Assembly (NCBI GenBank): GCA_003156795.1
Contig: PMHU01000182.1
Location: forward strand, 366 to 34,541
Length of the DNA stretch: 34,176 nt
Origin: Acidimicrobiaceae bacterium
Lineage (GTDB): Bacteria > Actinomycetota > Acidimicrobiia > Acidimicrobiales > Palsa-688
Direction of reading: 5' to 3'
Each line of letters begins with the position of its first letter. Positions within the stretch are counted from its first letter, which is position 1. This document shows, piece after piece, positions 2,012 to 34,176 of the stretch. A program made the translations under genes and the position numbers. The notes beneath the pieces are model-generated. The model was not told where the DNA came from. It made no database searches and worked only from the letters and a program-made list of their open reading frames with translations.

Positions 2012-2818
2012 TCATTTGTGGGCCAGGTGGATGGCCGCCTCCGGTGTGTTGATGCGGAATGCGAGGCTCTCTTCGATGTAGAGGTGCACGTCATCGGCGT
2101 CGGCCCTGGAGAAGCCGATCGAGAAGTCCTGTCCTACGGTCATCTCGAAGTCCCCGCCTCGTTGACTCACGATTACGGCACCGTCCACGGCGGGCGCCCA
2201 AATGACGTCGCCTCCAAGGATGTTGCGTAGATGTTCGAATACGGGATATCCGCCGTGTTCGGTCGTCTCTGTGACACCCGTGAAACACCGTGGTCCCATC
2301 GCTATCGCATAGGGTCCGGCGACGCCAGCGTCGCGCAGCAGCGCAACCGCCTTGGCCACATGCTGGGGGTAGTGGGCGTAATCGTCGCCTATGGTAACCG
2401 CCTCGTGCGGCGACGACGGGACGATCCCGGAGATGCCGCCGGCCCCGTAGCCGTGAAAGATCGCTGCGTCCTCGGCCAAGGCCGCTGATCGGCTGGCACC
2501 GATAACGGCAGAGAGATCGAGGTCGCGGGCGCCGCGCTCGGCTTCCGCCAGTTCGACCGACGTTATAGAGAACGGGGCCCGAAACTCGACGATGGGGAGC
2601 ACTTTGCGTCCAGCTGCTTCGACACCCTCGGCCGAGAGCTCAGACAGGGATTCTGTGCGCCCGAGGCCGACCGAGGAGTACTCCCACCCGAGAGGGCCGG
2701 TGAAATCAATCAGCCGTCGCGCCGCCAGATAATGCTTCAGCGATCTGCGCGCTTCGGCATCGATCTGCTCCCAGGCCGCGTCCGAGATCGGTGCAAGCTC
2801 GCGCAACAGGTGGTTCAT
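2012..2818 (-). CDS. Family 1 encapsulin nanocompartment shell protein (linocin M18/HK97-fold type)
   Basis: The 268-aa product matches my recollection of the T. maritima and M. tuberculosis encapsulins along its length: MNHLLRELAPISDAAWEQIDAEARR..., GPLGWEY, LPIVEFRAPF, DAGVAGPYAIAM, IWAPAVDGAVIVSQRGGDFEMTVGQDFSIGF, HLYIEESLAFRI. An SD-like GAGAGGGAGA lies ~8 nt upstream of the ATG. Confidence 0.95.
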   Translation of the reverse strand: MNHLLRELAPISDAAWEQIDAEARRSLKHYLAARRLIDFTGPLGWEYSSVGLGRTESLSELSAEGVEAAGRKVLPIVEFRAPFSITSVELAEAERGARDLDLSAVIGASRSAALAEDAAIFHGYGAGGISGIVPSSPHEAVTIGDDYAHYPQHVAKAVALLRDAGVAGPYAIAMGPRCFTGVTETTEHGGYPVFEHLRNILGGDVIWAPAVDGAVIVSQRGGDFEMTVGQDFSIGFSRADADDVHLYIEESLAFRINTPEAAIHLAHK

Positions 2819-3549
2819 TAGAGTCTCCCTCTCTCATTTCGTAGGCTTCCGATGCCGAGACTGGTGTCGCCCGGGCCAAGTCTGGCCAATGGATTTGGAA
2901 TGGGTTCGGCAACCTTGTGCAACGTGTTGCGATCGACGTGGTGGAACGGCACTTCGCGCCCCGGGATTTCCAGCACTCCCTCTTCCTCGTACGACCAGGT
3001 CCCATCGTCGTTGACCGTTACGTGAATCCGGTAGCTGGTCGTCCGAAATGCCCGATCAAGGAATGGGTTGGAAAGGATGCCGTGGACTTCGGACCCCAGG
3101 GCTGCAGTGAGTTCAAACTCCTTGGCGTCGACGTCGACTGATCCTGCAGCAAGCAGCACTTGCCCTCTAGGGATCGCAAGGGTGAATGTAACCATGGATG
3201 CCGCTGGTTCCCAGAGCCAGTAGCCGATCTGATCGTGGAACGTCACTATCTGACCGGGTTCGACGATGTGGGTGTGGTAGCGCAAGCCGTAGAAGAGCTG
3301 GGGTCCGTTCGTCTGGAAATCGATTGGTTGGAGCTCGTAGTGCTCGACGAACACGCTGTGCTCGGACCCGTCGGCAACCGGATGGTCGTCAGATCCTTTC
3401 GTTCCCTCCCAGACCCCGGCAAGGGGCCGCAGCGGTCCGAGGCTGTTCAAAGTGTCCGGATCCCCGGGCGGCTCGGTATAGATATCAGTGCCGTAGGGAT
3501 CTGACGCCGTTTGGCGTACCCCGGACTCCACTCGATCGACGATGGCCAC
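2818..3549 (-). CDS. Nitrobindin-like haem-binding beta-barrel protein (THAP4 haem-binding/former DUF1794 type) with a C-terminal encapsulin cargo-loading peptide
   Basis: 243 aa. Nitrobindin-type landmarks: LRPLAGVWEGTKG, FYGLRYHTHI, IGYWLWEP, SYRIHVTVNDDGTWSYEEEG, and a candidate proximal His in FHHVDRNTLHKV. A Pro/Gly-rich linker (EPIPNPLARLGPGD) leads to TSLGIGSLRNERGRL at the C-terminus. The TAA stop overlaps the encapsulin ATG (TAATG). The start is a GTG without a clear SD, so the 5' end is uncertain. Confidence 0.85.
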   Translation of the reverse strand: MAIVDRVESGVRQTASDPYGTDIYTEPPGDPDTLNSLGPLRPLAGVWEGTKGSDDHPVADGSEHSVFVEHYELQPIDFQTNGPQLFYGLRYHTHIVEPGQIVTFHDQIGYWLWEPAASMVTFTLAIPRGQVLLAAGSVDVDAKEFELTAALGSEVHGILSNPFLDRAFRTTSYRIHVTVNDDGTWSYEEEGVLEIPGREVPFHHVDRNTLHKVAEPIPNPLARLGPGDTSLGIGSLRNERGRL

Positions 3550-3674
3550 GGGGATACTCTTGCACGCGGGCGCCGATCGTCACCGCGGGTCCGGCTAGGC
3601 GTCTGCCGAGTCCCCCTGAAGGTATGGCTCGGTGGTGATCGGGCGGACGAGCCCGGAGTGTGCTTGGAACCCAG

Positions 3675-5624
3675 TTACGTTCCCGAGACGGCGCGTTCTC
3701 GGCGGGCGCGGGCGGCCTTCTTGGCTTCGTACATGGCTTGGTCGGCTTGGCGGACGAGCGTCATGGGATCGGTGTCCTGGTCACATTGGGCGAGGGCGAC
3801 GCCGACGCTGGCCTCCAAGGGAACGACGCCCGCCTTCACGGAGATCCGGCACTGCGCCACGGCCTGACGGATTCGCTGCACCACGGTATCCCCGTCGCAG
3901 CTGTGGCCGTGGCACAGCACGACCAGGAACTCATCGCCGCCCAGGCGTCCGACCACGTCGCACGCGTCGGTGACGCGGGTGAGGGCCATTGCGGTGGCGG
4001 TGATGGCGGCGTCGCCTGCCTCGTGCCCGTAGACGTCGTTGATGGGTTTCAGGCCGTCGAGGTCGATGAACAACACGGCCACTGTCTCACCAGCCTCTCG
4101 GCGCCGACTCACGTCGTCGGTGAGATACTCGAGCACCGCACGCCGGTTGAGCAGCCCCGTGAGCGCGTCGTGGGTGGCCGCCTCGTGCAGGAGCTGGCGT
4201 TGCACCTGCCGCTCGTGTATCCGGTCACTGAGGGCGTCGATCGATACCTGCAGGGCCTGGCCGGTCCGGCCCGGCAGGGGTTTGCGCAGCTCAGGATCGG
4301 AGAGGTCCTCAGCCGCCAGGCCGACGGCCTTCTCCTCGACGGCCTTCAGGGTAGAGGCCATGTCGTTGAACGCGGCGATCGTGGTCACGACCTCTCTGGG
4401 ACCTTTGTCGGCCAGGGGTTCCAGGTCGAACTCCCCGTTGCTTACTTGCAGGGCGCCGGCCGCCAACCTCTTCAGCGGCTGGGTGAGCATGCGACCGGCG
4501 GCAAGCACGCCGCTGATGCAGAGGAGCGCCAGAAGGGAGAGGAAGACGATCTCGTCGGTGAGTTGGCGGGTGGCGGCAGAAGCCTGGGCCATGGCGGTGT
4601 CGTGGAGGTCCTGGGAGGCCGAGGTCACGAGGCTGTTCAAGTCGGCCAGGTAGTTGAGCGAGGGCGCCAGGGCGGAGCCGCTGAAAGCCAGGTTGCCGCT
4701 CAGCGACGGCTTCGTACCGTTGACTGCGACGGTGACTGCCTTTTGGATGGTGGCGGCGAAGCGCACGTCGGTGGGGGCGGTCTGCAGGTGGCGCCATGCC
4801 TGCTCGGCCTTGGGGCCCAGCTGGCCGGCGAACTCACCTTCTGCGGTCTGGTATTCGCCGGCGGCCTGGATCAGTTGCTGCTTGGCGTTGGCGGGACCGA
4901 CGCCTTCGAGGACGTAAGCGGAATCCCCGATTTCGTTTCCGCCGGCCAGGAACGCTTGGTAGGTTTGCAACAGTGCGGCCATATGCGCTTCGAAGGACGC
5001 CGGGGGCCGCCAGGACTTGATGTCGGTCTGGAGCTGGTTGTAGTCCCGGTACCAGATGTCGTCGATGTCTGAGTCGGTCTTGACGAAGAAGGCGTTGACC
5101 CGGTCGAACGAAATGGTCCCGGCGACTATTGCGGGGATGATCGCCTGCAACTGCGAGATGTCGGCCCGCATGGTCGGCGTCGACGAGAGGGTGGGATAGC
5201 TCGCCAGGATGGTCGCACCCTGCGCCAGCTGGTCCTGGAAAGGCACGGTCGGGTGCAGCAGGTTGTCCAGTACCGATATGCTGATGCCGAGCTGGGCGGC
5301 GTAGGACACCGCCGTGAACGGCAACTGGAAGCTACTCAGCTTGGCCCTGGCCGAGGCGACCACCGCCAGCTGGGTTGCGTCTTTGGCTGCTTTCCCAGCG
5401 TCGCGGTGGGCTCCCCAGGCAGAGGTGGCCGAGGAGGCGACGAGGATGCAAGTCGCCAGCATCGGGATCAGGACCACCGAGATCAGCAGGAACCGTACGC
5501 CCAGGTGGTGTCGCCCGCTCTTCGGAATGGCGGGCAACTCCAGAGCTGTCCCGTTTAGAGAGATCAACTTGGAGGGGCCTGGCGGGGAGCCAGTGCCGGT
5601 TCGGTTGCGGGTTGGATCCGCCAT
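3675..5624 (-). CDS. Membrane-bound diguanylate cyclase (TM, large extracytoplasmic helical sensor, TM, HAMP, GGDEF)
   Basis: TM1 is FLLISVVLIPMLATCILVA; a ~300-aa extracytoplasmic region follows; TM2 is IVFLSLLALLCISGVLAA; a HAMP-like segment is RMLTQPLKRLAAGALQVSNGEFD...FNDMASTL. GGDEF domain: HDALTGLLNRRA, LFIDLDGLKPINDVYGH, GRLGGDEFLVV, ADQAMYEAK. The start could be the ATG at 5624 or the GTG at 5633. Confidence 0.9.
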   Translation of the reverse strand: MADPTRNRTGTGSPPGPSKLISLNGTALELPAIPKSGRHHLGVRFLLISVVLIPMLATCILVASSATSAWGAHRDAGKAAKDATQLAVVASARAKLSSFQLPFTAVSYAAQLGISISVLDNLLHPTVPFQDQLAQGATILASYPTLSSTPTMRADISQLQAIIPAIVAGTISFDRVNAFFVKTDSDIDDIWYRDYNQLQTDIKSWRPPASFEAHMAALLQTYQAFLAGGNEIGDSAYVLEGVGPANAKQQLIQAAGEYQTAEGEFAGQLGPKAEQAWRHLQTAPTDVRFAATIQKAVTVAVNGTKPSLSGNLAFSGSALAPSLNYLADLNSLVTSASQDLHDTAMAQASAATRQLTDEIVFLSLLALLCISGVLAAGRMLTQPLKRLAAGALQVSNGEFDLEPLADKGPREVVTTIAAFNDMASTLKAVEEKAVGLAAEDLSDPELRKPLPGRTGQALQVSIDALSDRIHERQVQRQLLHEAATHDALTGLLNRRAVLEYLTDDVSRRREAGETVAVLFIDLDGLKPINDVYGHEAGDAAITATAMALTRVTDACDVVGRLGGDEFLVVLCHGHSCDGDTVVQRIRQAVAQCRISVKAGVVPLEASVGVALAQCDQDTDPMTLVRQADQAMYEAKKAARARRERAVSGT

Positions 5625-5873
5625 AGCTCCCACAAGTTGTCGTCACGCGGGGCTCTCTTCTTGAGCTATGAGGCCTATATGGCGGGCGCTGTCGTGGTTC
5701 CCGTCTCGCCCGCCCCAGACCGGCTGACCGGACTGACCCGAGTCATACCGATGACAGCCGTGACGATGCGGTACCGGGGGCCGCTAGGAGCTCGTCCATG
5801 CCCGCTCCGATGCCCTCCGCCATGACGTCGACATCCGGGGCATGGTCGTAGTCGCCGGTAACCTATAGACCCA

Positions 5874-25211: not shown

Positions 25212-28200
25212 TCAGGTCGTCGGAGGCGGGGCGACCTCGCCTTGCAGGACCGTCCCCACCCGACCGGCTCCAAGAAGAGCCTCGTAGCCGTTGGACAGGG
25301 AGGCGATCGCAAAGCACTCGCCCGTGGTTGGACAGGCGATCGCGGTTATCCCGGTGACGCCCACGGGGATGGGTTGGGCGGCCCAGTCGCCCGTTGAGAC
25401 AGGGCGAGTAGGGACGGCAGAGCGGGCGATGGAAGTCGTGGCCGTCGTCGATGCCGCGGTGGTCGACGTGCTGCTCAACACGCCGGCGGCGGCCGTCAAG
25501 TGGAGCGTTCTGTACATCTCGGTCACCGTCGTATTCGAGGCGGAGGAGCCGGCAGGCACGAACTGGCCGGCCAGCCAACACACCTTCGTGGTGACGCACT
25601 CAATGGCGGTCAGGGCCCGCACGCCGGCGGGGATGGCGACGTCCTGCCAGGCGGCCACCCCAGAGGAATCGATGGTCCCATCTAGCAGTTGAGGGCCCGA
25701 CGCTCCCGTGGCCAGGAGCAGACACTGTGAGGGTCGCGGGCAGGTGATCGCTCCGACGTCCTGGGTGCCGAACGGCACAGGGAGCGTCGCCCACGTGGAT
25801 CCAGACCGGCGCAGCACCTCGGGTTGGCCGTTGACCTGAACGCTGACCAGGCAGATCGTCGGTTGGGGGCAGGCCAGACCGGTCACCGACTGGACGCCGG
25901 CGGGCAGCGGGATCGTCACCGGGTTGCCGGGGCCGGACAGTTGGAGCCGCACTACGGTGGCCCGGTTGGCGGAGGTGGTGTTGCCGGCGGCCACGCACGC
26001 GGCGGAGGTGCACGACAGCTCAGCTAGACCGCCGATTGCCGGGTCGCTCGCCTCGATGGTCGAGTAGCCCCCTCCGGGCGCCAGGCCGACGAGCACCCCC
26101 ATGGGGCTGCTGGTGGGCAGGATGAAAGCCCCCAGGTGGTTTCTCGTCAGGTCGGGGAAGGCGCCCGAGGCGTAGCAGTCCGTGGCGGTAAGACACGAGA
26201 GGGCCGACACCGTCAGCTTGGGCCCATAGAAGTCCACGGCCCAGCCGCTCCCCCCGTCGGTCGTGAAACCTACGCCGCTCTGGCCCGAGAGCCAACAGCC
26301 CGCGGCGCCGGGACAGTAGATGTCGGGGACGAACGGCATGGTCTCCGGGGCGAGATGAACGGCCCACGTGACCCCCCCGTCAGCCGTGGACAGGAAGTAC
26401 GGCGAGCCGCTCGAGCTCTCGAGACCGCCCCACTCGACCGTCCCGTCGACCAAGCAGGATGTCGGCGTCCAGCAGGATACGGAGTCGAAGCCGTACGGCT
26501 GGGGAAATGACGGGAAGGCCACGCGCGACCAGGTCGCGCCCCCGTCGGTGGTCCGGTTGATCGTGCCGATCTGGCTCTGCAAGCTGTTGGTGTACTCGCC
26601 GACGACCCAGCAGACGCTGGCGTTGACGCAGTCGACGGAAGCTGCGGTATAGAGCAGGCCCGGCAGGCCAACGGACGTCCACGTGGCACCGGAGTCGTGG
26701 GTGGCCTCGGCCGTCCCGTCGGCGATCCCCACGCACGAATCGGCCGTGGAGCAGGAGATGGTGGTGATGGGTCCTGACCCGTTGGGCGTCGGGACTTGCG
26801 TCCACTGGCCCCCACCCGAGTTCTTGAAAAGGCCGGATCTGGATGCGGCCCAACACTCGGTGGCGCCGGGTACGCAGCTGACTCCAGTAAACGCTCCTGT
26901 CCCCGAAGGGAGCGAAGCGGCCCGCCAGGTGAGGCCGCCGTCGGCCGTGGCGAGAGCGGTGGCGTCGCCGGACGACGTCGCTCCGACCGCGATGCAATAG
27001 GTGTCGGAGGCGCAAGAGATGTCGGCGATGGTCCCGCCGCCGGCGGGAATTTGGGACAAGGTCCGCTGCCCGCCAGGTCCGAGGATCAGGATGGCTGAGC
27101 CGAGGTCGACCCAGCAGTGGGTGGCGTCCGGACAGGTGACCTCGGTCGCCTGGCCTGACCCGGACACGGTGGTGAAGGCGCCGGCGACAGCGGCCGGAGA
27201 CCCGATCAAAGACAAGGCGGTCGCCACCCCGCCGACGACGGCGACGGTCGCGACAGCAGACACCGGGTGGGCGGTAGCGGCGTGGTGGACGCGCGACGCC
27301 AACCGCCGGATGCGGCGAAGACGCCCGCTGGTCGGAATCGAGGGGCCGGCGGACGCAGCTGCGCTGGACCCGCCGGCCAGTTCTGTAGCGCCGGCGCTCA
27401 GGGCTCCGATCACGGCGCCGGCCACGGCCGCGAGGGACGCCCGCCTGCGCCAGTCGGGTCCGTAGCCGGCTTCGGCCGCCTCGCCCAGTTCGGCGAGAAA
27501 CTCTTCAGCCGTCGCGGGCCGGTCCCCTGGACTCTTCGACAACGAGCGGGCGACCAGATCTCCGACTGGATCCGGTACGCCGTGCAGGCGCGGCGGCGGA
27601 GAGTCCCGGTGGGCGGCGGCCACCGCCCCGGCGGTGCCGACAAATGGCGGCCGGCCGGTCAGGAGCTCGTAGAGGATCAGGCCGGCGGCGTAGACGTCGG
27701 AGCGGGCGTCGACCGGTTCGTCACGGAGCGCTTCGGGAGAGGCGTAGGCGGGGGTGCCACCAGACGGCTTGGAGCCGGTTGGGCCGGCCTGGCCGAAGTC
27801 GACGAGCTTGGATACGCCTTCTTCGGTGACGATCACGTTCTCGGGCTTGAGGTCGCCGTGGACGACCCCCAGCCGGTGGGCCGCGGCGAGCCCTGACAGG
27901 GCCCCGGCCAGGACGCCGAGGGACTGTTCGGGGGTGAGGCGTCGTCCGTCCTTCACGACTTCGCGCAGCGGTGCGCCGGGCACGTACTGCATGACCAGAT
28001 AGGCCCCGCCGTCCCGTTCGACGTAGTCGTAGACGTCCACCAGGTTCTCGTCGTCGAACTGGGTCATGAGGCGGGCTTCGGCTCGGAAGCGCTCCCGGAA
28101 CCCGGGTGCATCCAAGCGCCATGCTGCGAGCACCTTGACCGCCACGTCTCGGTCGGTCGAGGACTGGCGAGCCAAGTAGACGGTGCCGGTGGTGCCCGAT

Positions 28201-28265
28201 CCGAGGACCCGGCTGAATTCGTAGCCTGGAAGGAACGGAAGGTCGTCCGTCCTGGTGCCCGACAT
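25212..28265 (-). CDS. Receptor-type Ser/Thr protein kinase (non-RD, HGD) with TM segment(s) and a large Asp-box (BNR)/Cys-pair beta-propeller ectodomain
   Basis: Kinase motifs: LGSGTTGTVYLA, VAVKVL, VVHGDLKPENVIV, VDFGQA, TPAYASPE. Hydrophobic segments: ASLAAVAGAVIGALSAG and VSAVATVAVVGGVATALSLIG. The ectodomain has Asp-boxes (TADGGLTW, THDSGATW, TTDGGATW, TADGGVTW, TTDGGSGW) and 13 C-x(4-6)-C motifs. The preferred start is the ATG at 28265 (GAGGGGG lies 6 nt upstream). An alternative ATG at 28310 sits 1 nt after the upstream stop. Confidence 0.9.
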   Translation of the reverse strand: MSGTRTDDLPFLPGYEFSRVLGSGTTGTVYLARQSSTDRDVAVKVLAAWRLDAPGFRERFRAEARLMTQFDDENLVDVYDYVERDGGAYLVMQYVPGAPLREVVKDGRRLTPEQSLGVLAGALSGLAAAHRLGVVHGDLKPENVIVTEEGVSKLVDFGQAGPTGSKPSGGTPAYASPEALRDEPVDARSDVYAAGLILYELLTGRPPFVGTAGAVAAAHRDSPPPRLHGVPDPVGDLVARSLSKSPGDRPATAEEFLAELGEAAEAGYGPDWRRRASLAAVAGAVIGALSAGATELAGGSSAAASAGPSIPTSGRLRRIRRLASRVHHAATAHPVSAVATVAVVGGVATALSLIGSPAAVAGAFTTVSGSGQATEVTCPDATHCWVDLGSAILILGPGGQRTLSQIPAGGGTIADISCASDTYCIAVGATSSGDATALATADGGLTWRAASLPSGTGAFTGVSCVPGATECWAASRSGLFKNSGGGQWTQVPTPNGSGPITTISCSTADSCVGIADGTAEATHDSGATWTSVGLPGLLYTAASVDCVNASVCWVVGEYTNSLQSQIGTINRTTDGGATWSRVAFPSFPQPYGFDSVSCWTPTSCLVDGTVEWGGLESSSGSPYFLSTADGGVTWAVHLAPETMPFVPDIYCPGAAGCWLSGQSGVGFTTDGGSGWAVDFYGPKLTVSALSCLTATDCYASGAFPDLTRNHLGAFILPTSSPMGVLVGLAPGGGYSTIEASDPAIGGLAELSCTSAACVAAGNTTSANRATVVRLQLSGPGNPVTIPLPAGVQSVTGLACPQPTICLVSVQVNGQPEVLRRSGSTWATLPVPFGTQDVGAITCPRPSQCLLLATGASGPQLLDGTIDSSGVAAWQDVAIPAGVRALTAIECVTTKVCWLAGQFVPAGSSASNTTVTEMYRTLHLTAAAGVLSSTSTTAASTTATTSIARSAVPTRPVSTGDWAAQPIPVGVTGITAIACPTTGECFAIASLSNGYEALLGAGRVGTVLQGEVAPPPTT

Positions 28266-28311
28266 GCCCAACCCCCTCGCTGCCCCTCCGTCTCGCCAGC
28301 TGCCGGCCATG

Positions 28312-29622
28312 CTAGGCCGCGGCCAGTTCGGGTTCCCGAGCGAGGCCCAGGATCGGGGCGATGTCGCCGAGCACATCGAAGTCGGGGCTAAGGGTCCGGC
28401 ACAGCCCGCTGATGTACAGCATCTGCTTGAAGAAGGCCACGAGTGACTCCGGCAGGGCGAAGCCGTTGCGGGATGCGAGTTGGAGGATGGCGCCGATCGC
28501 GTCTCGCACGTCGATGCCGGCGAGCGGCTTGTCGATGAACTCACCAATCAGAGCCTGGACTTGAGGTATCACCGAGGTCAGGTCGATGCCGCTCGGATCG
28601 ACGATCTGGAACATGGCCATGACCGCGTCGCCGAAGCGCCCTTCGGCTAGAGCGGCGAGAAGGTCGGAGGTGGCGGGCCTGACGATGTCGTCGAGGTGGG
28701 CGATCACTCCGAAGTCGAGCAGTCCCAACCGGCCGTCGTCGAGCACGAGCATGTTGCCAGGGTGCATGTCGGCATGGAAGACACCGCTTCCGAGGGCTGG
28801 TACGAGGAGGGCGGATATGACCGACTCGACCACGTGTGAACGGTCGATGCCGAGTCCCTCGACGGCCTCGACGTCGTCGGCGCGAGCGCCTCGCAGCCGC
28901 TCCATCACCAGTACCCGTTCGGTGGACAGCTCTTCGTACACGGCGGGGACTTTCACCGGCAGGAAAGATAGGGCGAGCGCCATCCCCCGCGCGTTGGCGG
29001 CCTCGCCGCGGAACGAGAGCTGCTCCTCGAGCCCCCGAGCGAAGTCGTCCACCAGAGCCATGGGGTTGGCGGCCGCGCAAGCCGACGAAAAGCGGGCGGC
29101 CAGCCTCGCCGCGGTGCGGAGCAGGCGGATGTCCTCGGACAAGAGCTTCTCCAAACCAGGGCGCTGCACCTTGACCACGACCGGGGTTCCGTCTGCGAGC
29201 CGGGCGGTATGCACTTGGGCCATGGACCCGGCGGCGAGCGGCTCGGGGTCAACGTCGACGAGTTCGGCGCGGTTGGCGCCCAACTCTTCGGCCAGCAGTT
29301 CGGACACCGACCGCCAAGGCGCGGGTGGAACGTCGTCGCGACAGTGGGCCATCTCGTTCACCCACGTCTGGGAGAGGGGACCGGCCGAGGAGGACATCAG
29401 CTGGCCGGCCTTCACGAAGGTCGGGCCCAGGCGCTCGAACGCCTTTCTAACTCGGTGGGCGAGGAGGGCATCGGCGTCCGCCCCCCGCCGGGTCAGGCGG
29501 TCGAGAGCGGTTCCGACCACGATCCTGGCCGCGGCCAGGGCGAGGGCGATCACCCGGGTGAGGGGGAGTCCGGACCGGTTGAAAGGGTGGCTGGCGGGAG
29601 GCTTGGTCACGTTCCTAAGCAT
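28312..29622 (-). CDS. ABC1/UbiB-family atypical protein kinase
   Basis: LGPTFVKAGQLMSS, AAGSMAQVHTARL, VVKVQRPG, GVFHADMHPGNMLV, LGLLDFGVIA. The ATG at 29622 gives MLRNVTKPP.... The longer ORF up to 29865 would overlap the divergent FHA gene. Confidence 0.9.
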   Translation of the reverse strand: MLRNVTKPPASHPFNRSGLPLTRVIALALAAARIVVGTALDRLTRRGADADALLAHRVRKAFERLGPTFVKAGQLMSSSAGPLSQTWVNEMAHCRDDVPPAPWRSVSELLAEELGANRAELVDVDPEPLAAGSMAQVHTARLADGTPVVVKVQRPGLEKLLSEDIRLLRTAARLAARFSSACAAANPMALVDDFARGLEEQLSFRGEAANARGMALALSFLPVKVPAVYEELSTERVLVMERLRGARADDVEAVEGLGIDRSHVVESVISALLVPALGSGVFHADMHPGNMLVLDDGRLGLLDFGVIAHLDDIVRPATSDLLAALAEGRFGDAVMAMFQIVDPSGIDLTSVIPQVQALIGEFIDKPLAGIDVRDAIGAILQLASRNGFALPESLVAFFKQMLYISGLCRTLSPDFDVLGDIAPILGLAREPELAAA

Positions 29623-29706
29623 GAATAGGCAGGGGTCGCCGAAGAACCGCCGCGAAGGGGGTCGTTCTCGGCGCCGGCGGGGGTCTTTCCCCCCGCCCTG
29701 GAGGGG

Positions 29707-30357
29707 GTGCGCCGCTACCATCGGCGGACGGTGGATGCCTTCCTCGAACCACGCGGGTCGGCGGCGGCCGGGATCGTCGCCCTGACCAAGGACCGCACCA
29801 CCATCGGCCGGGCCGCCGAGGCGGACTTGAGCCTGGAGTCGGACGGAACCGTTTCGAGGTTGCACTCGGCGATCGAGCGCTATCCCGGCGGCTGGGTGCT
29901 CAGGGACTTGGGTTCGTCGAACGGGACGTTCGTCAACGGCGAGCGCGTCGTCGGCGACCGTCCCCTCAATTCAGGCGACGAAGTCAGGGTGGGATCGTGC
30001 GTGTTCCTTTTTCACAGCGGAAGCGGCCAGGTCGACGAGTTGGAGACGGTGCAGGGGAGCCCGCCGCCAGTTCTGACCAGGCGGGAACACGAGGTGCTGG
30101 TCGAGCTGTGCCGGCCGCTCGTCGACCGGACGACCGCTTTCGGCCGGCCCAGCTCGGTCGCGGAGATCGCGGCGCGCCTGTACATCGGGCAGGCGACGGT
30201 CAAGTTCCACTTGGACAACCTGTTTGACAAGTTCGGTTTGTTGGAGCCGGGGGAAGGGCGCCGGTTGGCCCTGGCCAACGACGCGCTACGCCGCGGGGCC
30301 GTCAGCTTGGCCGAACTTCGCCAGGCGTCCGGGTCCGGCGGGGGCTCCATCCCCTGA
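29707..30357 (+). CDS. FHA domain / LuxR(GerE)-type HTH fusion regulator
   Basis: FHA domain: TIGRAAEADLSLESDGTVSRLHSAIERYPGGWVLRDLGSSNGTFVNGERV...GDEVRVGSCVFLF. C-terminal HTH: LTRREHEVLVELC...SVAEIAARLYIGQATVKFHLDNLFDKFGL. The GTG start at 29707 follows GGAGGGG; an alternative GTG is at 29731. Confidence 0.85.
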   Translation: MRRYHRRTVDAFLEPRGSAAAGIVALTKDRTTIGRAAEADLSLESDGTVSRLHSAIERYPGGWVLRDLGSSNGTFVNGERVVGDRPLNSGDEVRVGSCVFLFHSGSGQVDELETVQGSPPPVLTRREHEVLVELCRPLVDRTTAFGRPSSVAEIAARLYIGQATVKFHLDNLFDKFGLLEPGEGRRLALANDALRRGAVSLAELRQASGSGGGSIP

Positions 30358-30377
30358 GCGGGATAACCCGCCCGCCC

Positions 30378-31868
30378 ATGACCATCGCCGCCAAGGAGCT
30401 CGACCGGCTGAGAGAAGCCGGCTACGTGGTGGAGGACGAGATCGGGAGGGGAGCGTCGGGGGTCGTGTACCTCGCCACTCAGCAGCTGCTGGCCCGGCGG
30501 GTCGCGCTCAAGCGCGTCGGGTTCGACCCGGCCGCCGGGGAGACGGTGCGGAGGCGCCTCGACACGGAAGTGGCGGCGCTGGTGGCGCTGGAGCACCCAG
30601 GGGTGGTTCGCCTCATGGATGTGCAGAGGTATCCAGGGGCGCTGTGGTTCGTGATGGAGTACGTCAACGGACCGTCGCTCCGACAGGTCCTGGACTCGAC
30701 CACCTCCGGTGTCAGGCCACCTGAAGCGCTGCGAATATTGGAGGAGCTGACCGGAGTCCTGGACCACCTGGCCAGCCGCGGGATCGTCCACCGGGACCTG
30801 AAGCCGGCCAACGTGTTCCTCACCGCGGACGGGCGGACCAAGGTCGGCGACTTCGGAATCGCCCTCGTCCATGCGCCGGAGGGAACGGCCGACGCCCTGG
30901 GCCGTCTGACCCAGCCGGGGGTCGTCATCGGGACTCCGGCCTACCTCTCGCCCGAGCAAGCCGGCGGCCGCGACGAGCTCGGGAGTGCGTCGGACCTGTA
31001 CAGCTTGGGCGTGATGGCGTACGAGCTCTTGGTAGGGCGCGTCCCGTTTTCCAGCCCCGGCAACGTCCTCGCCCTCCTGGCCGCCCAGGAGACCGAGCCA
31101 CCTCCAGCCCCGCGCAGCATCCGGCCGGAGCTGAGCCGGGCGGTCGAGGCGGCGCTCCTCGGCCCGCTGGCCAAGGCCCCATCCGACCGGCCTCCGAGCG
31201 CAGGGGCTTTCTGGTCGCAGCTCGAACTGGCGGCCGAGGAGGCGTGGCCCCGATGGCGAGCGTCGGCAGACACCGTGGCCCTGTCCGGTCGCTTGGCCAG
31301 GGGGAGCCGCCCAGTGCGGGCCACCGGGGCCCAGGACGACGCCACCGTAGGGGCGACGGGCGACGGCCTGGCGGCAGAGTCAGTGGTGGCTTCGAGCGGG
31401 CCGGCGTCCGCCGAGCGCGGCGACGAGCCGCAGCCGCCGCCCCGAGTGGATGCACGCCCCCCGCCCAAGCGCGGCGGCGCCCAGAGGTGGGCGCTCCCGG
31501 CGGTCGTGTTCGTGGTCGCGGTGGTGGGGGGCTTCCTAGCGGTCCGGGCCGTGACGGCCAAAGGCGCCGCGGGGCTGAGGGTCGCCTCGATGAGCCTGGC
31601 CTTCCAGCCCGCTCCATCCGGGTGCGCAGTCGTCGCCCGCCTACAGACCAACGGCGTCCGGGGGCGGCTCAGGTACGAGTGGGCGGACGGTGGCGGTCCA
31701 CCGCCGGTCGAAGGTTCGTTGACGGTCAGCGGCCGACCGGTGGTGGTCGTCGACCATAACCTCGATGGCACGACCGCGGCCGGGCCGGCAGCCACGACCG
31801 TGACCTTTTCACTCCTGAGTCCGGGGCCGACGCGACGAGAGTCCCTCCCCGTGCCAGCGAGCTGCTGA
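30378..31868 (+). CDS. Ser/Thr protein kinase (RD type) with a single TM and a small extracytoplasmic domain
   Basis: IGRGASGVVYLA, VALKRV, IVHRDLKPANVFL, VGDFGIA, GTPAYLSPEQ, DLYSLGVMAYELL. TM helix: WALPAVVFVVAVVGGFLAVRAV. It starts 20 nt after the FHA-LuxR stop. Confidence 0.92.
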   Translation: MTIAAKELDRLREAGYVVEDEIGRGASGVVYLATQQLLARRVALKRVGFDPAAGETVRRRLDTEVAALVALEHPGVVRLMDVQRYPGALWFVMEYVNGPSLRQVLDSTTSGVRPPEALRILEELTGVLDHLASRGIVHRDLKPANVFLTADGRTKVGDFGIALVHAPEGTADALGRLTQPGVVIGTPAYLSPEQAGGRDELGSASDLYSLGVMAYELLVGRVPFSSPGNVLALLAAQETEPPPAPRSIRPELSRAVEAALLGPLAKAPSDRPPSAGAFWSQLELAAEEAWPRWRASADTVALSGRLARGSRPVRATGAQDDATVGATGDGLAAESVVASSGPASAERGDEPQPPPRVDARPPPKRGGAQRWALPAVVFVVAVVGGFLAVRAVTAKGAAGLRVASMSLAFQPAPSGCAVVARLQTNGVRGRLRYEWADGGGPPPVEGSLTVSGRPVVVVDHNLDGTTAAGPAATTVTFSLLSPGPTRRESLPVPASC

Positions 31869-32185: not shown

Positions 32186-32382
32186 GGCTGGTGTGTCTCC
32201 TTGTGGTTACCCGTTGCCCGTGTGGCAAACCGTGTTTCTAACCATGCGCCTCGGAAGGCCTCAGGGGTAACAGCGCGAAGGGGGGATTGTCCCGGCCGGG
32301 GCGGGGGGCGTTTCCTGTCTCCGGGGAGGGGGTCCTTGCCAGAGGGCGACGGTTGGGTGTTTCATCGGCTCCTGGAGGCAGA

Positions 32383-33288
32383 GTGTCAGACAGGTTGACG
32401 GGTGCGTTGTTGATAGCCACGACGCCACGGTCGGGCAGCTGGTTGCTGAGCGACTTTCTGGCGCGTACCGGCCAGGTTGGCGTGGGCCGGGAGTATTTTC
32501 ACGTCAACTACGTGGCCGCCATGTCCCACGAGCGCGGCCTGGCCACGACGCGAATAACGGAGGAGTACATCGGAGAGATCCTGCGTGAGGCATCGGACGC
32601 GGGAGTGTGCTTCGCGACCAAGCTGCACTGGTTGCAGATCAACCAGTTGGTAGACGCTTTACGGGTGATCCACCCGGAGCTGGCGGCGGCGAACGCGATG
32701 GCCACCGACCTGATCGAGGCCTCGCTGCCGGGGTCTCGCTACCTGTACCTGTCTCGGCGGGACAAAGCCCGCCAGGCCATCTCCATGTTTAGGGCCATGC
32801 GCACCGAAAGGTGGTGGGAGCTCGACGACGCTCCGACAGGCCCAGAGTCGACAGGCCCAGAGTTGACAGGCCCAGAGTCGGCGCCCTTCCCTGACTACCT
32901 GGCCATCCGATGGTTCGAGGATGGCCTGCGTAGCGAAGAGGCCGAGTGGGATCGCTACTTCCGAGTCTTCGGAATCGTCGCCCACCAGGTGGTGTACGAG
33001 GACTTGGTGGCCCAACCGCAGCGGGTGTTGCGGGGTGTTCTCGATTGGCTCGGCCTGGACCAAGTAGCACCGCCCGCGGGCCCGAGCCGCTTGCGTCGCC
33101 AAGCCGATACCGAAACCGAACGGATCCTCGCCGAGTACCTGCATATTCGCGACGACCTACCCTCCCGGCCCCCGGGTTGGCAGTGGTCGTTCCAGCGGGG
33201 CGGTTTCGGCTTTGCCGATCGGCAACCCGCCGCGGACGATGCCCGGATGGTGCCACCAACCGCGGTCAGCCACCTGTCACCGCTATAG
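32383..33288 (+). CDS. Stf0-family sulfotransferase (trehalose 2-sulfotransferase-like)
   Basis: LLIATTPRSGSWLLSDFLARTG (a PAPS 5'-phosphosulfate-binding loop of the PRSGS type), KLHWLQ, and RYLYLSRRDKARQAISMFRAMRTERWW resemble M. tuberculosis Stf0. The start could be the GTG at 32383 (GGAGG lies 4 nt upstream) or the TTG at 32395. Confidence 0.8.
   Translation: MSDRLTGALLIATTPRSGSWLLSDFLARTGQVGVGREYFHVNYVAAMSHERGLATTRITEEYIGEILREASDAGVCFATKLHWLQINQLVDALRVIHPELAAANAMATDLIEASLPGSRYLYLSRRDKARQAISMFRAMRTERWWELDDAPTGPESTGPELTGPESAPFPDYLAIRWFEDGLRSEEAEWDRYFRVFGIVAHQVVYEDLVAQPQRVLRGVLDWLGLDQVAPPAGPSRLRRQADTETERILAEYLHIRDDLPSRPPGWQWSFQRGGFGFADRQPAADDARMVPPTAVSHLSPL
32835..32879 (+). repeat. In-frame 15-bp tandem repeat (3 copies) inside the Stf0-like gene
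   Basis: gacaggcccagagtc / gacaggcccagagtt / gacaggcccagagtc, read directly from the sequence. It encodes TGPES-TGPEL-TGPES. Confidence 0.9.
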
Positions 33289-33321
33289 GCGGTACGTCAT
33301 CGGGCTATGGGGCCGCCTGGG

Positions 33322-34176
33322 TCACGGAGCCTCGGCCGGACTCAGGAATCGTTCGGTGTAGGCCGCAAACCGGTCCGCGAGGTCGTCACGGTCCAGGCCG
33401 ACGTCCTCGGCCCGGTAGTCGATGCTCCCGTGCCGGTCGCGTTGGTGGGTCGCGAGGTAGGTCTCCATGGCGGCCAGGTGGTCTTGGGTCACCGTCTCGT
33501 TCGCCACCTCGTAACAGCGCACCGCCGTGGCCAGATCGTCGGCCATGAATTCACCGAATCGGATGTCGAGGGAACGCCCGGATGGAAGGCGGTCACGGTC
33601 GCGGATGAGGCTGTCGAGCATGAGCGCGATGCGGTCCCGCCAGTAGCGCCCGATCTGTTCGACGGGAACCTCGTCGCGATGCATGCGGGCGGTGTAGGCG
33701 ATCATGGTCGCCATGGAGACGACCACCTCAGCCGGGTCGCGATGGGTGATGACAACGGTGGCGTCCGGAAACACCGCGTTCAGCACCGGGAGCTGTTCGA
33801 GGTGTTGCGGCGACTTCAGCAACCAGCGTCGGGCGCCGCCCAGATGCTGGAGCGCCCGCAGTTGGGTACGCAGGTACGAGTAGTGGGGCGTCTGATCATG
33901 GTCTAGGTAGTAGTCACGCCAGGCGGGTATCTCACCTAGGGTCTCGAAGAACATGGTCGAGAAGTCATTGGCGAGAAGCTGGATCTCCTCGTGGACGTGG
34001 TCCGCGGTCATCTCGTGCATGAGCTTGAAGTAGGGCATGGCGAGGTCGACGAACCACAGGCCTTGCTCGGCCCGGGCGCGTCGAGGGTCGGGTTCGGTCC
34101 CGATCTCGGCCGGTAGGGGGAAGGGTTCGAGGGACTCCCAGTACGGGAGGGAGCGAAAGGCGGGGCCGGCTGCGAG
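33322..34176 (-). CDS. Sulfotransferase family protein (Sulfotransfer_3-like); the N-terminus lies outside the window
   Basis: The frame stays open from 34038 to the window edge (...LAAGPAFRSLPYWESLEPF...GLWFVDLAMPYFKL). RWLLKSPQHLEQLPVLNAVFPDATVVITHRDPAEVVVSMATM is the characteristic 3'-phosphate-binding region of actinobacterial sulfotransferases. Confidence 0.8.
   Translation of the reverse strand, partial: LAAGPAFRSLPYWESLEPFPLPAEIGTEPDPRRARAEQGLWFVDLAMPYFKLMHEMTADHVHEEIQLLANDFSTMFFETLGEIPAWRDYYLDHDQTPHYSYLRTQLRALQHLGGARRWLLKSPQHLEQLPVLNAVFPDATVVITHRDPAEVVVSMATMIAYTARMHRDEVPVEQIGRYWRDRIALMLDSLIRDRDRLPSGRSLDIRFGEFMADDLATAVRCYEVANETVTQDHLAAMETYLATHQRDRHGSIDYRAEDVGLDRDDLADRFAAYTERFLSPAEAP

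Follow-up and report, generated by a model that had tools for sequence, protein, structure and literature searches.

The window analysed here, a stretch of 34,176 nucleotides of contig PMHU01000182.1 from an Acidimicrobiaceae bacterium, is metagenome-derived, and its closest named relatives, among the matches listed, are uncultured Acidimicrobiaceae and Acidimicrobiales metagenome-assembled genomes (MAGs). Its minus strand carries a pair of adjoining genes, the first of which encodes a nitrobindin-like protein with a C-terminal encapsulin targeting peptide (hereafter the cargo and the tag) and the second a family-1 encapsulin shell protein (Table 1). A preliminary description of this DNA had reported two open reading frames (ORFs) on the same strand with overlapping stop and start codons, and we indeed found them, of 243 and 268 aa and both on the minus strand; the landmarks it had read in the first of them, LRPLAGVWEG, IGYWLWEP, SYRIHVTV..GTWSYEEEG, HHVDRNTLHKV and SLGIGSLR, were all present in the cargo translation. 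The cargo begins with MAIVD, a start common to the close homologues P0009 and P0005. The 1-nt overlap of stop and start codon suggests that translation of cargo and shell may be coupled, and the tight junction recurs: in 28 of 32 related loci the shell begins 0-21 nt after the cargo match ends. Both genes are present in identical form on contigs of ENA and Logan, the longest of them 137,847 bp. Taken as a whole, we consider it probable that the pair is a two-gene family-1 encapsulin operon in which a nitrobindin-like haem protein would be loaded into the shell through its tag.

Table 1. Features of the cargo-shell operon (positions are those of the window; aa, amino acids; pLDDT, predicted local distance difference test)
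Feature	Position	Strand	Remarks
Cargo gene	3549..2818	minus	243-aa ORF, GTG start; nitrobindin-like (PF08768) with C-terminal encapsulin targeting peptide
N-terminal extension, residues 1-36	3442..3549	minus	Motif YG.DIYTEP.GDPDTL.NLGPL, conserved in alignments A1 and A2; pLDDT 44-72
Beta-barrel domain, residues 37-212	2914..3441	minus	Whole Pfam THAP4_heme-bd profile
His105 codon (FHDQIGYW)	3235..3237	minus	Aligned with haem-cavity His76 of Arabidopsis nitrobindin (HMMER, hhalign)
His204 codon (PFHHVDRNTL)	2938..2940	minus	Candidate proximal haem ligand; opposite H158 of Arabidopsis nitrobindin (hhalign, low local confidence)
Flexible linker AEPIPNPLARLGPGDT, residues 213-229	2863..2913	minus	Low pLDDT; length variable among homologues
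Targeting peptide SLGIGSLR, residues 230-237	2839..2862	minus	Family-1 consensus match
TAATG junction	2816..2820	minus	Cargo stop and shell start share one base (ctcTAATGaac)
Encapsulin shell gene, family 1	2818..2012	minus	268 aa, ATG start
Intergenic region 5' of cargo gene, 125 bp	3550..3674	minus	Presumed promoter region

The shell protein matched Pfam Linocin_M18 (PF04454) along the whole profile (E 1.5e-88, positions 1-253 of 253) and the NCBIfam encap_f1 equivalog NF041155 with 317.3 bits, the cut-off being 100 (residues 4-265, profile 1-261 of 261). In a sequence search of the PDB, 34 solved encapsulin sequences matched it at E <= 1e-10, the best being 9ry4 (E 1e-83), followed by the shells of triangulation number 1 (T=1) of Klebsiella pneumoniae (8u50), Mycobacterium tuberculosis (Cfp29), Brevibacterium linens and Thermotoga maritima at 1e-72 to 1e-46, while the T=3 and T=4 shells of the EncA type matched only at ~1e-14. 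These matches agree with one another and, judged by sequence, the protein is a family-1 encapsulin, as the preliminary description had claimed. Since its closest solved relatives are T=1 shells and the EncA-type shells are far weaker matches, we have good confidence that it forms a T=1 shell of 60 subunits. The best match belongs to a set of six recent PDB entries (9ry4, 9ry7, 9rzm, 9rzu, 9s05 and 9sqr; 77 chains) of a 280-aa shell labelled 'Type 1 encapsulin shell protein', and the codes 9ry4 and those of its sister entries are not mentioned in the searchable literature. The K. pneumoniae encapsulin (KpEnc) holds its targeting peptide on the luminal P-domain via R34, D38, D229 and I230, and mutation of R34 or D229 nearly abolishes loading (PMC10960027). 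The aligned pocket residues of the window shell are R34, D38, D231 and F232, three of them identical to those of KpEnc and the fourth, I230 to F232, a conservative replacement.

At the other side of this putative contact, the C-terminal stretch of the cargo, GDTSLGIGSLRNE, fits the family-1 consensus SDGSLGIGSLKRS, the tag pattern used by Andreas & Giessen for finding cargo (PMC8346489). SLGIGSLR, which ends six residues before the cargo stop codon and follows a linker of variable length, is identical to the core of that consensus and to the core of the Haliangium ochraceum Flp tag GSLGIGSLR, for which there is a solved structure of tag and shell in complex (PMC10960027). Moreover, L231, I233, L236 and R237 of the cargo correspond in the same register to the contact residues L340, I342, L345 and K346 of the K. 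pneumoniae dye-decolorizing peroxidase KpDyP (PMC10960027). In an AlphaFold2 model the tail had a pLDDT of 44-59 (50-59 in the linker and over residues 221-240), and beyond the residues PNPL the linker varied among homologues in both sequence and length, with insertions of up to ~40 residues; thus the flexible linker and terminal SLGIGSLR read earlier from the letters proved to be a disordered linker and an exact match to the core of the family-1 tag. No further targeting-peptide-like motif was found in the six frames of the window. That SLGIGSLR is not a chance match is argued by its co-variation with the adjacent shell gene across related loci, as described below.

A protein search returned at least 8000 homologues of the cargo, and the tag was present in 119 of the best 120, which were 66-100% identical to it, although the linker before the tag was freely variable. 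In a library of representatives at 50% identity the family made up 1056 clusters at E <= 1e-3, mostly untagged. Because only 4 of the 44 cluster representatives with an intact C-terminus carried the tag, the tagged proteins appear, from their sequences, to be one diversified subclade of a wider, free-standing family. Species-representative genomes held at least 592 loci, besides thousands of metagenomic proteins, and the best 80 of these loci came almost all from uncultured Acidimicrobiia. We classified 78 of the best 80, a sample biased towards relatives of the query: 32 had both a tag and an adjacent family-1 shell gene, 25 a tag but no shell gene within 8 kb, 21 neither a tag nor an adjacent shell, and none of the 78 an adjacent shell without a tag (Fisher's exact p = 1.3e-6, with loci treated as independent though phylogenetically they are not fully so). 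The idea that homologues would carry the tail only when they sit next to an encapsulin gene was largely borne out: none of the 21 untagged homologues adjoins a shell, and each of the 32 adjacent shells is preceded by a homologue with the tag, another 25 tagged homologues being unlinked from a shell. Untagged proteins stood at no fewer than six separate places of a neighbour-joining tree. The tagged operons L022 and L037 have fully syntenic counterparts in two of the untagged loci, L024 and L029; DNA homology between them is lost just after PNPLA and returns just past the shell stop codon, and where tag and shell would be, the untagged loci have ~700 bp of unrelated sequence in place of both. 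Five further relatives of the shell gene all had a PF08768 gene directly upstream. At positions 3200-4000 of both L088 and L090 the PF08768 gene 5' of the shell is scattered over two or three frames, although its N-terminal motif, its barrel and its tag (SLGIGNLRHESRTLP / SLGIGYLRTESRMF) are each found intact in one of them; as read from these sequences the breaks would be either indels of long-read assembly or recent pseudogenes. In the wider, mostly untagged family, members of 50-60% identity often keep both the DIYTEP...DTL.NLGPL extension and a C-terminal PNPL, and relatives of ~40% identity (~190 aa) have neither; the ancestral protein may have ended in PNPL, with linker and tag as later additions.

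The tag-only loci had no conserved neighbour in common, and their tag was as conserved as that of the operons, the residues L-G-I-G-S-L-R being kept in 21-25 of the 25. In chromosome OY969793.1 (4,158,686 bp) the tag-only locus L019 occurs together with a shell, P0369, which is 70% identical to the window shell. The gene for this shell (locus L087) is an orphan: the tagged cargo gene is 1.58 Mb away, and within 10 kb there is neither a PF08768 gene nor any tagged ORF. It lies in a synteny block of acyl-CoA dehydrogenase, SelR and SSB genes, then the shell, then CoA-transferase, enoyl-CoA hydratase, DUF3501, rubrerythrin and Fur genes. Since the same block in four other genomes has a PF08768 gene directly 5' of the shell, gene order points to L019 and L087 as the halves of a split operon, and in this genome, the one traced among the 25 tag-only ones, the pairing of cargo and shell appears to have survived unlinking. 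The unlinked secondary cargos BfrB and FolB of M. tuberculosis resemble the ~30% of sampled loci in which a tagged protein is encoded away from the shell gene; in contrast to them, the shell of the L019/L087 genome has no core cargo beside it, so that the unlinked barrel would there be the primary cargo. Among the 57 tagged loci, the fifth residue of the tag was N, D or S in operonic cargos, which continued beyond the tag with a conserved tail R-N/S/H-E-S/R-x-x-L (Glu at +8 in 27 of 32); in unlinked cargos this residue was Ser in 23 of 25, and a conserved tail was lacking. Possible reasons for the difference are two subtypes of shell or a longer tag in operonic systems.

We then come to the nature of the cargo itself, of which residues 37-212 cover positions 2-151 of the 151 of Pfam THAP4_heme-bd (PF08768; E 2.5e-21, 76.8 bits, gathering cut-off 25). 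The AlphaFold2 model, built on 27 homologues (mean pLDDT 79.7, predicted template modelling score 0.75), had beta-barrel strands at residues 45-214 and a disordered N-terminus (1-14). When it was compared with the PDB by Foldseek, the nitrobindin domain of human THAP4 (3ia8) came out best (E 8e-8, target template modelling score (TM) 0.81), followed by Arabidopsis nitrobindin (At-Nb; 2a13) and its engineered variants with a target TM of 0.77; further down were M. tuberculosis Rv0813 (2fwv; target TM 0.50) and, four orders of magnitude weaker, OlmO (7sfn) and CpeS (4tq2). Alignment of the broad family alignment A2 with At-Nb and M. tuberculosis nitrobindin (Mt-Nb), whose sequences were checked against the PDB, gave a probability of 93.8% in hhalign. 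A sequence search of the PDB returned no match to the cargo alone or to a profile of its close homologues and, direct sequence search being too weak, the link to nitrobindins rests on the Pfam match, the fold search and hhalign. These three concur with the nitrobindin-like character claimed in the preliminary description and, as judged from sequence and predicted model, the cargo is a member of the nitrobindin/THAP4 haem-binding superfamily; the profile searches thus placed both proteins of the operon in the families expected for them, Linocin_M18 and THAP4_heme-bd.

Two histidines of the cargo are candidates for a role in haem binding. His105 stands opposite His76 of the At-Nb haem cavity, in a stretch aligned confidently by both HMMER and hhalign, and His204 stands opposite H158 in an extended hhalign alignment; that H158 is the proximal haem ligand of At-Nb was confirmed via the PDB entry of an H158L mutant. 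H204 was invariant in alignment A1 and conserved to at least 90% in A2, and both H105 and H204 were at least 90% conserved even among tag-less relatives of ~40% identity. The first His of the pair in PFHHVDRNTL is variable (H, R, S, A or P) and the second fixed. The cargo shares Pfam family, fold and an N-terminal PL..L.G.W.G motif with the characterised nitrobindins (At1g79260, M. tuberculosis Rv2717c and the C-terminal domain of human THAP4), and H105 and, at low local confidence, H204 would be the counterparts of cavity H76 and proximal H158 of At-Nb. From this sequence evidence we lean towards the cargo being a haem-binding protein.

Several observations weigh against this reading. The C-terminal part of the hhalign alignment, which places H204, has near-zero local confidence and a one-residue gap after it, and the spacing from His to Leu after H204 differs by one residue from that of canonical nitrobindins. 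Identity to the characterised nitrobindins is 16-20%, a broader family profile (HMMER) reached At-Nb only marginally (E 0.044), and on NCBIfam NF040572 (heme_bind_FMP) the cargo scored 47.2 bits, against a cut-off of 150, over positions 1-133 of 273. Compared with nitrobindins the barrel is ~25 residues longer and follows the conserved 36-residue N-terminal extension, both of which speak against a simple nitrobindin identity, and there are extra invariant polar residues, His, Arg and Glu among them (H56, R90, Y91, H92, H94, D106, Q107, E114, R128, Q130, N161, W185 and E189), which could form a different active site. The predicted fold also resembles cyclases and bilin lyases in Foldseek, as well as Rv0813, which we take to be a non-haem member of the superfamily. 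Lastly, Pfam annotation showed no NO- (nitric oxide), nitrite- or haem-related gene within the window. A reactive-nitrogen chemistry of the cargo, proposed by analogy, is a reasonable guess, though one with less than even odds. The C-terminal module of PNPL, linker and tag occurs in the cargo and in no characterised nitrobindin. To our knowledge, nitrobindins are either free or fused to a DNA-binding domain, as in THAP4, and none is compartmentalised.

In the mechanism that we propose, the downstream gene would provide a ~29-kDa shell protein self-assembling into a T=1 icosahedral compartment of 60 subunits, and the coupled upstream gene a 26-kDa beta-barrel of the nitrobindin superfamily. During assembly SLGIGSLR would dock into the inner-face pocket of each subunit (R34, D38, D231 and F232) and so enclose the barrel, which would hold one haem b with its iron ligated by His204 and with His105 in the cavity. 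The enclosed barrel would then act on a small diffusible oxidant passing the shell pores, which might be NO or peroxynitrite, or peroxide. For characterised nitrobindins, NO binding, reductive nitrosylation and the isomerisation of peroxynitrite have been described (PMC6275384, PMC7763097). By analogy, we regard the hemerythrin encapsulins of Actinobacteria as the closest functional precedent for a nitrosative-stress compartment; that of Streptomyces sp. AA4 protects Escherichia coli from H2O2 and NO in an encapsulation-dependent manner (Giessen & Silver, bioRxiv 10.1101/085266). They combine a T=1 family-1 shell with a small NO-binding iron protein, as the system of the window would. Hemerythrin, however, is a four-helix-bundle di-iron protein that binds NO and O2 at its di-iron centre, whereas the window cargo is a predicted haem beta-barrel which would carry out haem-catalysed peroxynitrite isomerisation or reductive nitrosylation.

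The operon as such could be misread in two ways. Were the shell a major capsid protein of the HK97 type from a prophage, some resemblance to phage capsids would be expected, and Pfam Phage_capsid did score 21.4 bits, which is below its cut-off of 24.2 and is expected from the shared HK97 fold. We rejected this identity, whose probability we hold to be negligible, on account of the 317 bits of encap_f1, the solved encapsulins matching at E 1e-83, and the absence of phage structural genes from the 34-kb window and its extension; Pfam annotation found no portal, terminase, protease or tail gene in the window or in a 20-kb public contig, the genes of both being metabolic and signalling ones only. 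It is likewise highly improbable that tag and adjacency are coincidental, with the barrel free in the cytosol and the shell loading something else or nothing. Such a coincidence would agree with the 25 tagged homologues that lack a shell gene within 8 kb, but it would leave unexplained why all eight residues agree with those of a tag validated by structure and why 119 of 120 closest homologues carry the tag behind a freely variable linker. It would equally leave unexplained that no shell stands beside an untagged homologue, that the loss of the tag goes with that of the shell in syntenic loci, and that a tag-only genome holds an orphan shell. Nor is there another tagged ORF in the window or beside the orphan shell to take the place of the barrel, and no DyP gene was found in the window. 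Physical encapsulation of the cargo, by analogy with the systems in which this tag has been validated, is very probable.

What the enclosed barrel would do leaves more room for alternatives. One of them, which we consider unlikely, is that it is encapsulated but binds no haem, and instead binds or transforms a hydrophobic small molecule (a lipid, a tetrapyrrole precursor, a bilin or a polyketide-like compound), with the polar residues as an enzymatic site. Foldseek did return the fatty-acid-binding-protein-like Rv0813, the spirocyclase OlmO and the bilin lyase CpeS; the invariant polar residues go beyond the needs of haem ligation, the N-terminal extension is one that nitrobindins lack, the haem-binding cut-off of NF040572 was failed, and alignment confidence is low at the proximal His. 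Yet the haem nitrobindins were by far the best structural matches (E 1e-7 vs 1e-3; target TM 0.77-0.81 vs 0.5-0.6), proteins of the Rv0813 type aligned worse, with a target TM of 0.50, and the residues kept at 90% or more down to ~40% identity include both of the histidines aligned with At-Nb. A cargo that does bind haem but serves another role, either as a store or buffer of haem (a haem analogue of the encapsulated ferritins) or as a peroxidase-like nanoreactor in place of DyP, is rather unlikely, if somewhat less so. The closest shells are T=1 shells of DyP systems and the tag is of the DyP/Flp type, which suggests a cargo swap in a DyP-like system; the small cargo could reach high occupancy, as monomeric SUMO-tag constructs have been shown to do (PMC10960027); and MsrB (SelR), rubrerythrin and Fur genes lie beside the operon in one large synteny group. 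On the other hand, that neighbourhood is not conserved across all tagged loci, genes for haem uptake, synthesis or degradation are not found nearby, and the activities characterised in the superfamily are NO binding and peroxynitrite isomerisation (PMC6275384, PMC7763097).

Among known systems, the family-1 systems of DyP type (K. pneumoniae, M. tuberculosis Cfp29/DyP, M. smegmatis and B. linens) are the most similar to the operon of the window in layout. In these the cargo gene is likewise directly upstream of the shell gene, the shell is of the same class (264-268 aa, T=1 relatives, E 1e-65 to 1e-72) with pocket residues R34, D38 and D229 matched by R34, D38 and D231 of the window shell, and the C-terminal tag is of the same type and register (L-x-I-x-x-L-K/R). 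Their cargo, too, is a haem-b protein for small oxidants, haem being a prediction for the window cargo. The folds of the two cargos are unrelated, however, DyP being a ferredoxin-like alpha+beta hexamer with subunits of ~340 residues and the window cargo an all-beta barrel of ~210 residues. Canonical nitrobindins are small single-domain proteins, and the occupancy of the window cargo could be much higher than that of DyP. The system of the window differs further in occurring almost only in uncultured Acidimicrobiia, as seen in the best 80 of at least 592 loci.

We found no link between encapsulins and nitrobindins, whether as THAP4-type haem-binding barrels or as peroxynitrite isomerase, in the searchable full-text literature, outside which subscription papers fall, and no mention of a nitrobindin-like cargo in the 2017 encapsulin catalogue, in the main text of the 2021 catalogue or in a 2025 review. 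The 2021 catalogue (Andreas & Giessen, PMC8346489) lists 2,383 family-1 systems with DyP, Flp-type, IMEF, hemerythrin, bacterioferritin, fusion-type and NIR-HAO cargo, together with 90 unassigned 'Minor' systems without a defined cargo. In the available part of its supplementary table PF08768 occurs once, ten genes away from a Mycobacterium DyP operon, and there are no entries from Acidimicrobiia; as far as this part goes, it is likely, but not proven, that the pairing is absent from the catalogue. The novelty claimed in the preliminary description is consistent with the catalogues, review and full-text literature searched, and there is a minor yet appreciable chance that some existing list already contains the pairing. 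What is new is the class of cargo and not the kind of system, which is well understood, and the pairing probably escaped notice since nearly all of its carriers are MAGs published after those surveys. Being almost wholly confined to uncultured lineages, it would have been missed by surveys of cultured genomes.

In its widest form the proposal is that soil and peat Acidimicrobiia possess a widespread, uncatalogued class of nanocompartment that encloses a haem-b nitrobindin-like protein as a reactor for reactive nitrogen or oxygen species or as a haem depot, with the tag gained and lost repeatedly in lockstep with the shell; we put this forward tentatively, at slightly less than even confidence. 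If true, nature would have provided one and the same enzyme in a series of encapsulated and free forms, and thereby a direct test of the benefit of encapsulation, the closely related tagged and untagged proteins with linked and unlinked shells being a natural design for that question. Encapsulins are classified, and their physiology inferred, by their cargo, and next to the DyP, ferritin-like, IMEF, bacterioferritin, hemerythrin and NIR-HAO proteins and the few secondary cargos of the published catalogues, a small, all-beta nitrobindin-like barrel would be a structurally new class, of a type encountered often in soil metagenomes. What nitrobindins do in the cell is still unclear, in bacteria as in humans, and a compartment set aside for one of them suggests an advantage in keeping its reaction, the intermediates or the cofactor apart. 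Nitrobindin already serves widely as a scaffold for artificial metalloenzymes, and a small, natively targeted haem protein would be an attractive chassis for the engineering of nanoreactors.

Around the operon, the 125-bp region 5' of the cargo gene showed no sigma-70-like site in a promoter scan whose scope lies outside the actinobacterial promoter types, and promoter and terminator scanning of the locus gave nothing above background. On the same strand a HAMP-GGDEF membrane diguanylate cyclase gene (3675-5633, minus) lies 125 bp 5' of the operon and a gene for a PAS-domain protein with a hydrophobic C-terminal half (434-1894, minus) 117 bp 3' of it. Both recur only in near-identical contigs of the same organism and are absent from the 80 related loci, and they were dropped as parts of the system; co-regulation of the operon by a PAS or cyclic di-GMP signal is possible but unsupported. 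In the group of L087-L092 and L022/L037/L024, acyl-CoA dehydrogenase, SelR (MsrB) and SSB genes flank the cargo-shell pair on one side, and CoA-transferase, enoyl-CoA hydratase, DUF3501, rubrerythrin and Fur genes and that of a glycerol-3-phosphate-dehydrogenase-like flavoprotein on the other. Judged from gene content, MsrB, rubrerythrin and Fur beside the pair suggest oxidative stress or iron, and not nitrogen oxides, as its context; the block is missing from the window's own locus and is not universal among tagged loci. Elsewhere in the window a signalling cluster (25212-31868) comprises genes for Ser/Thr protein kinases of 1111 and 496 aa, an ABC1 atypical kinase and a rhodanese, and is followed by two genes for Stf0-type sulfotransferases (32287-34038); the kinase and sulfotransferase genes are unrelated to the encapsulin operon. 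A gene for an RCC1/WD40_RLD-repeat protein with GYN.YGELGNGTTGGPDG repeats (1-411, plus; L081 13139-14947) is truncated where the window begins; RCC1-type beta-propeller repeat proteins are uncommon in Actinomycetota.

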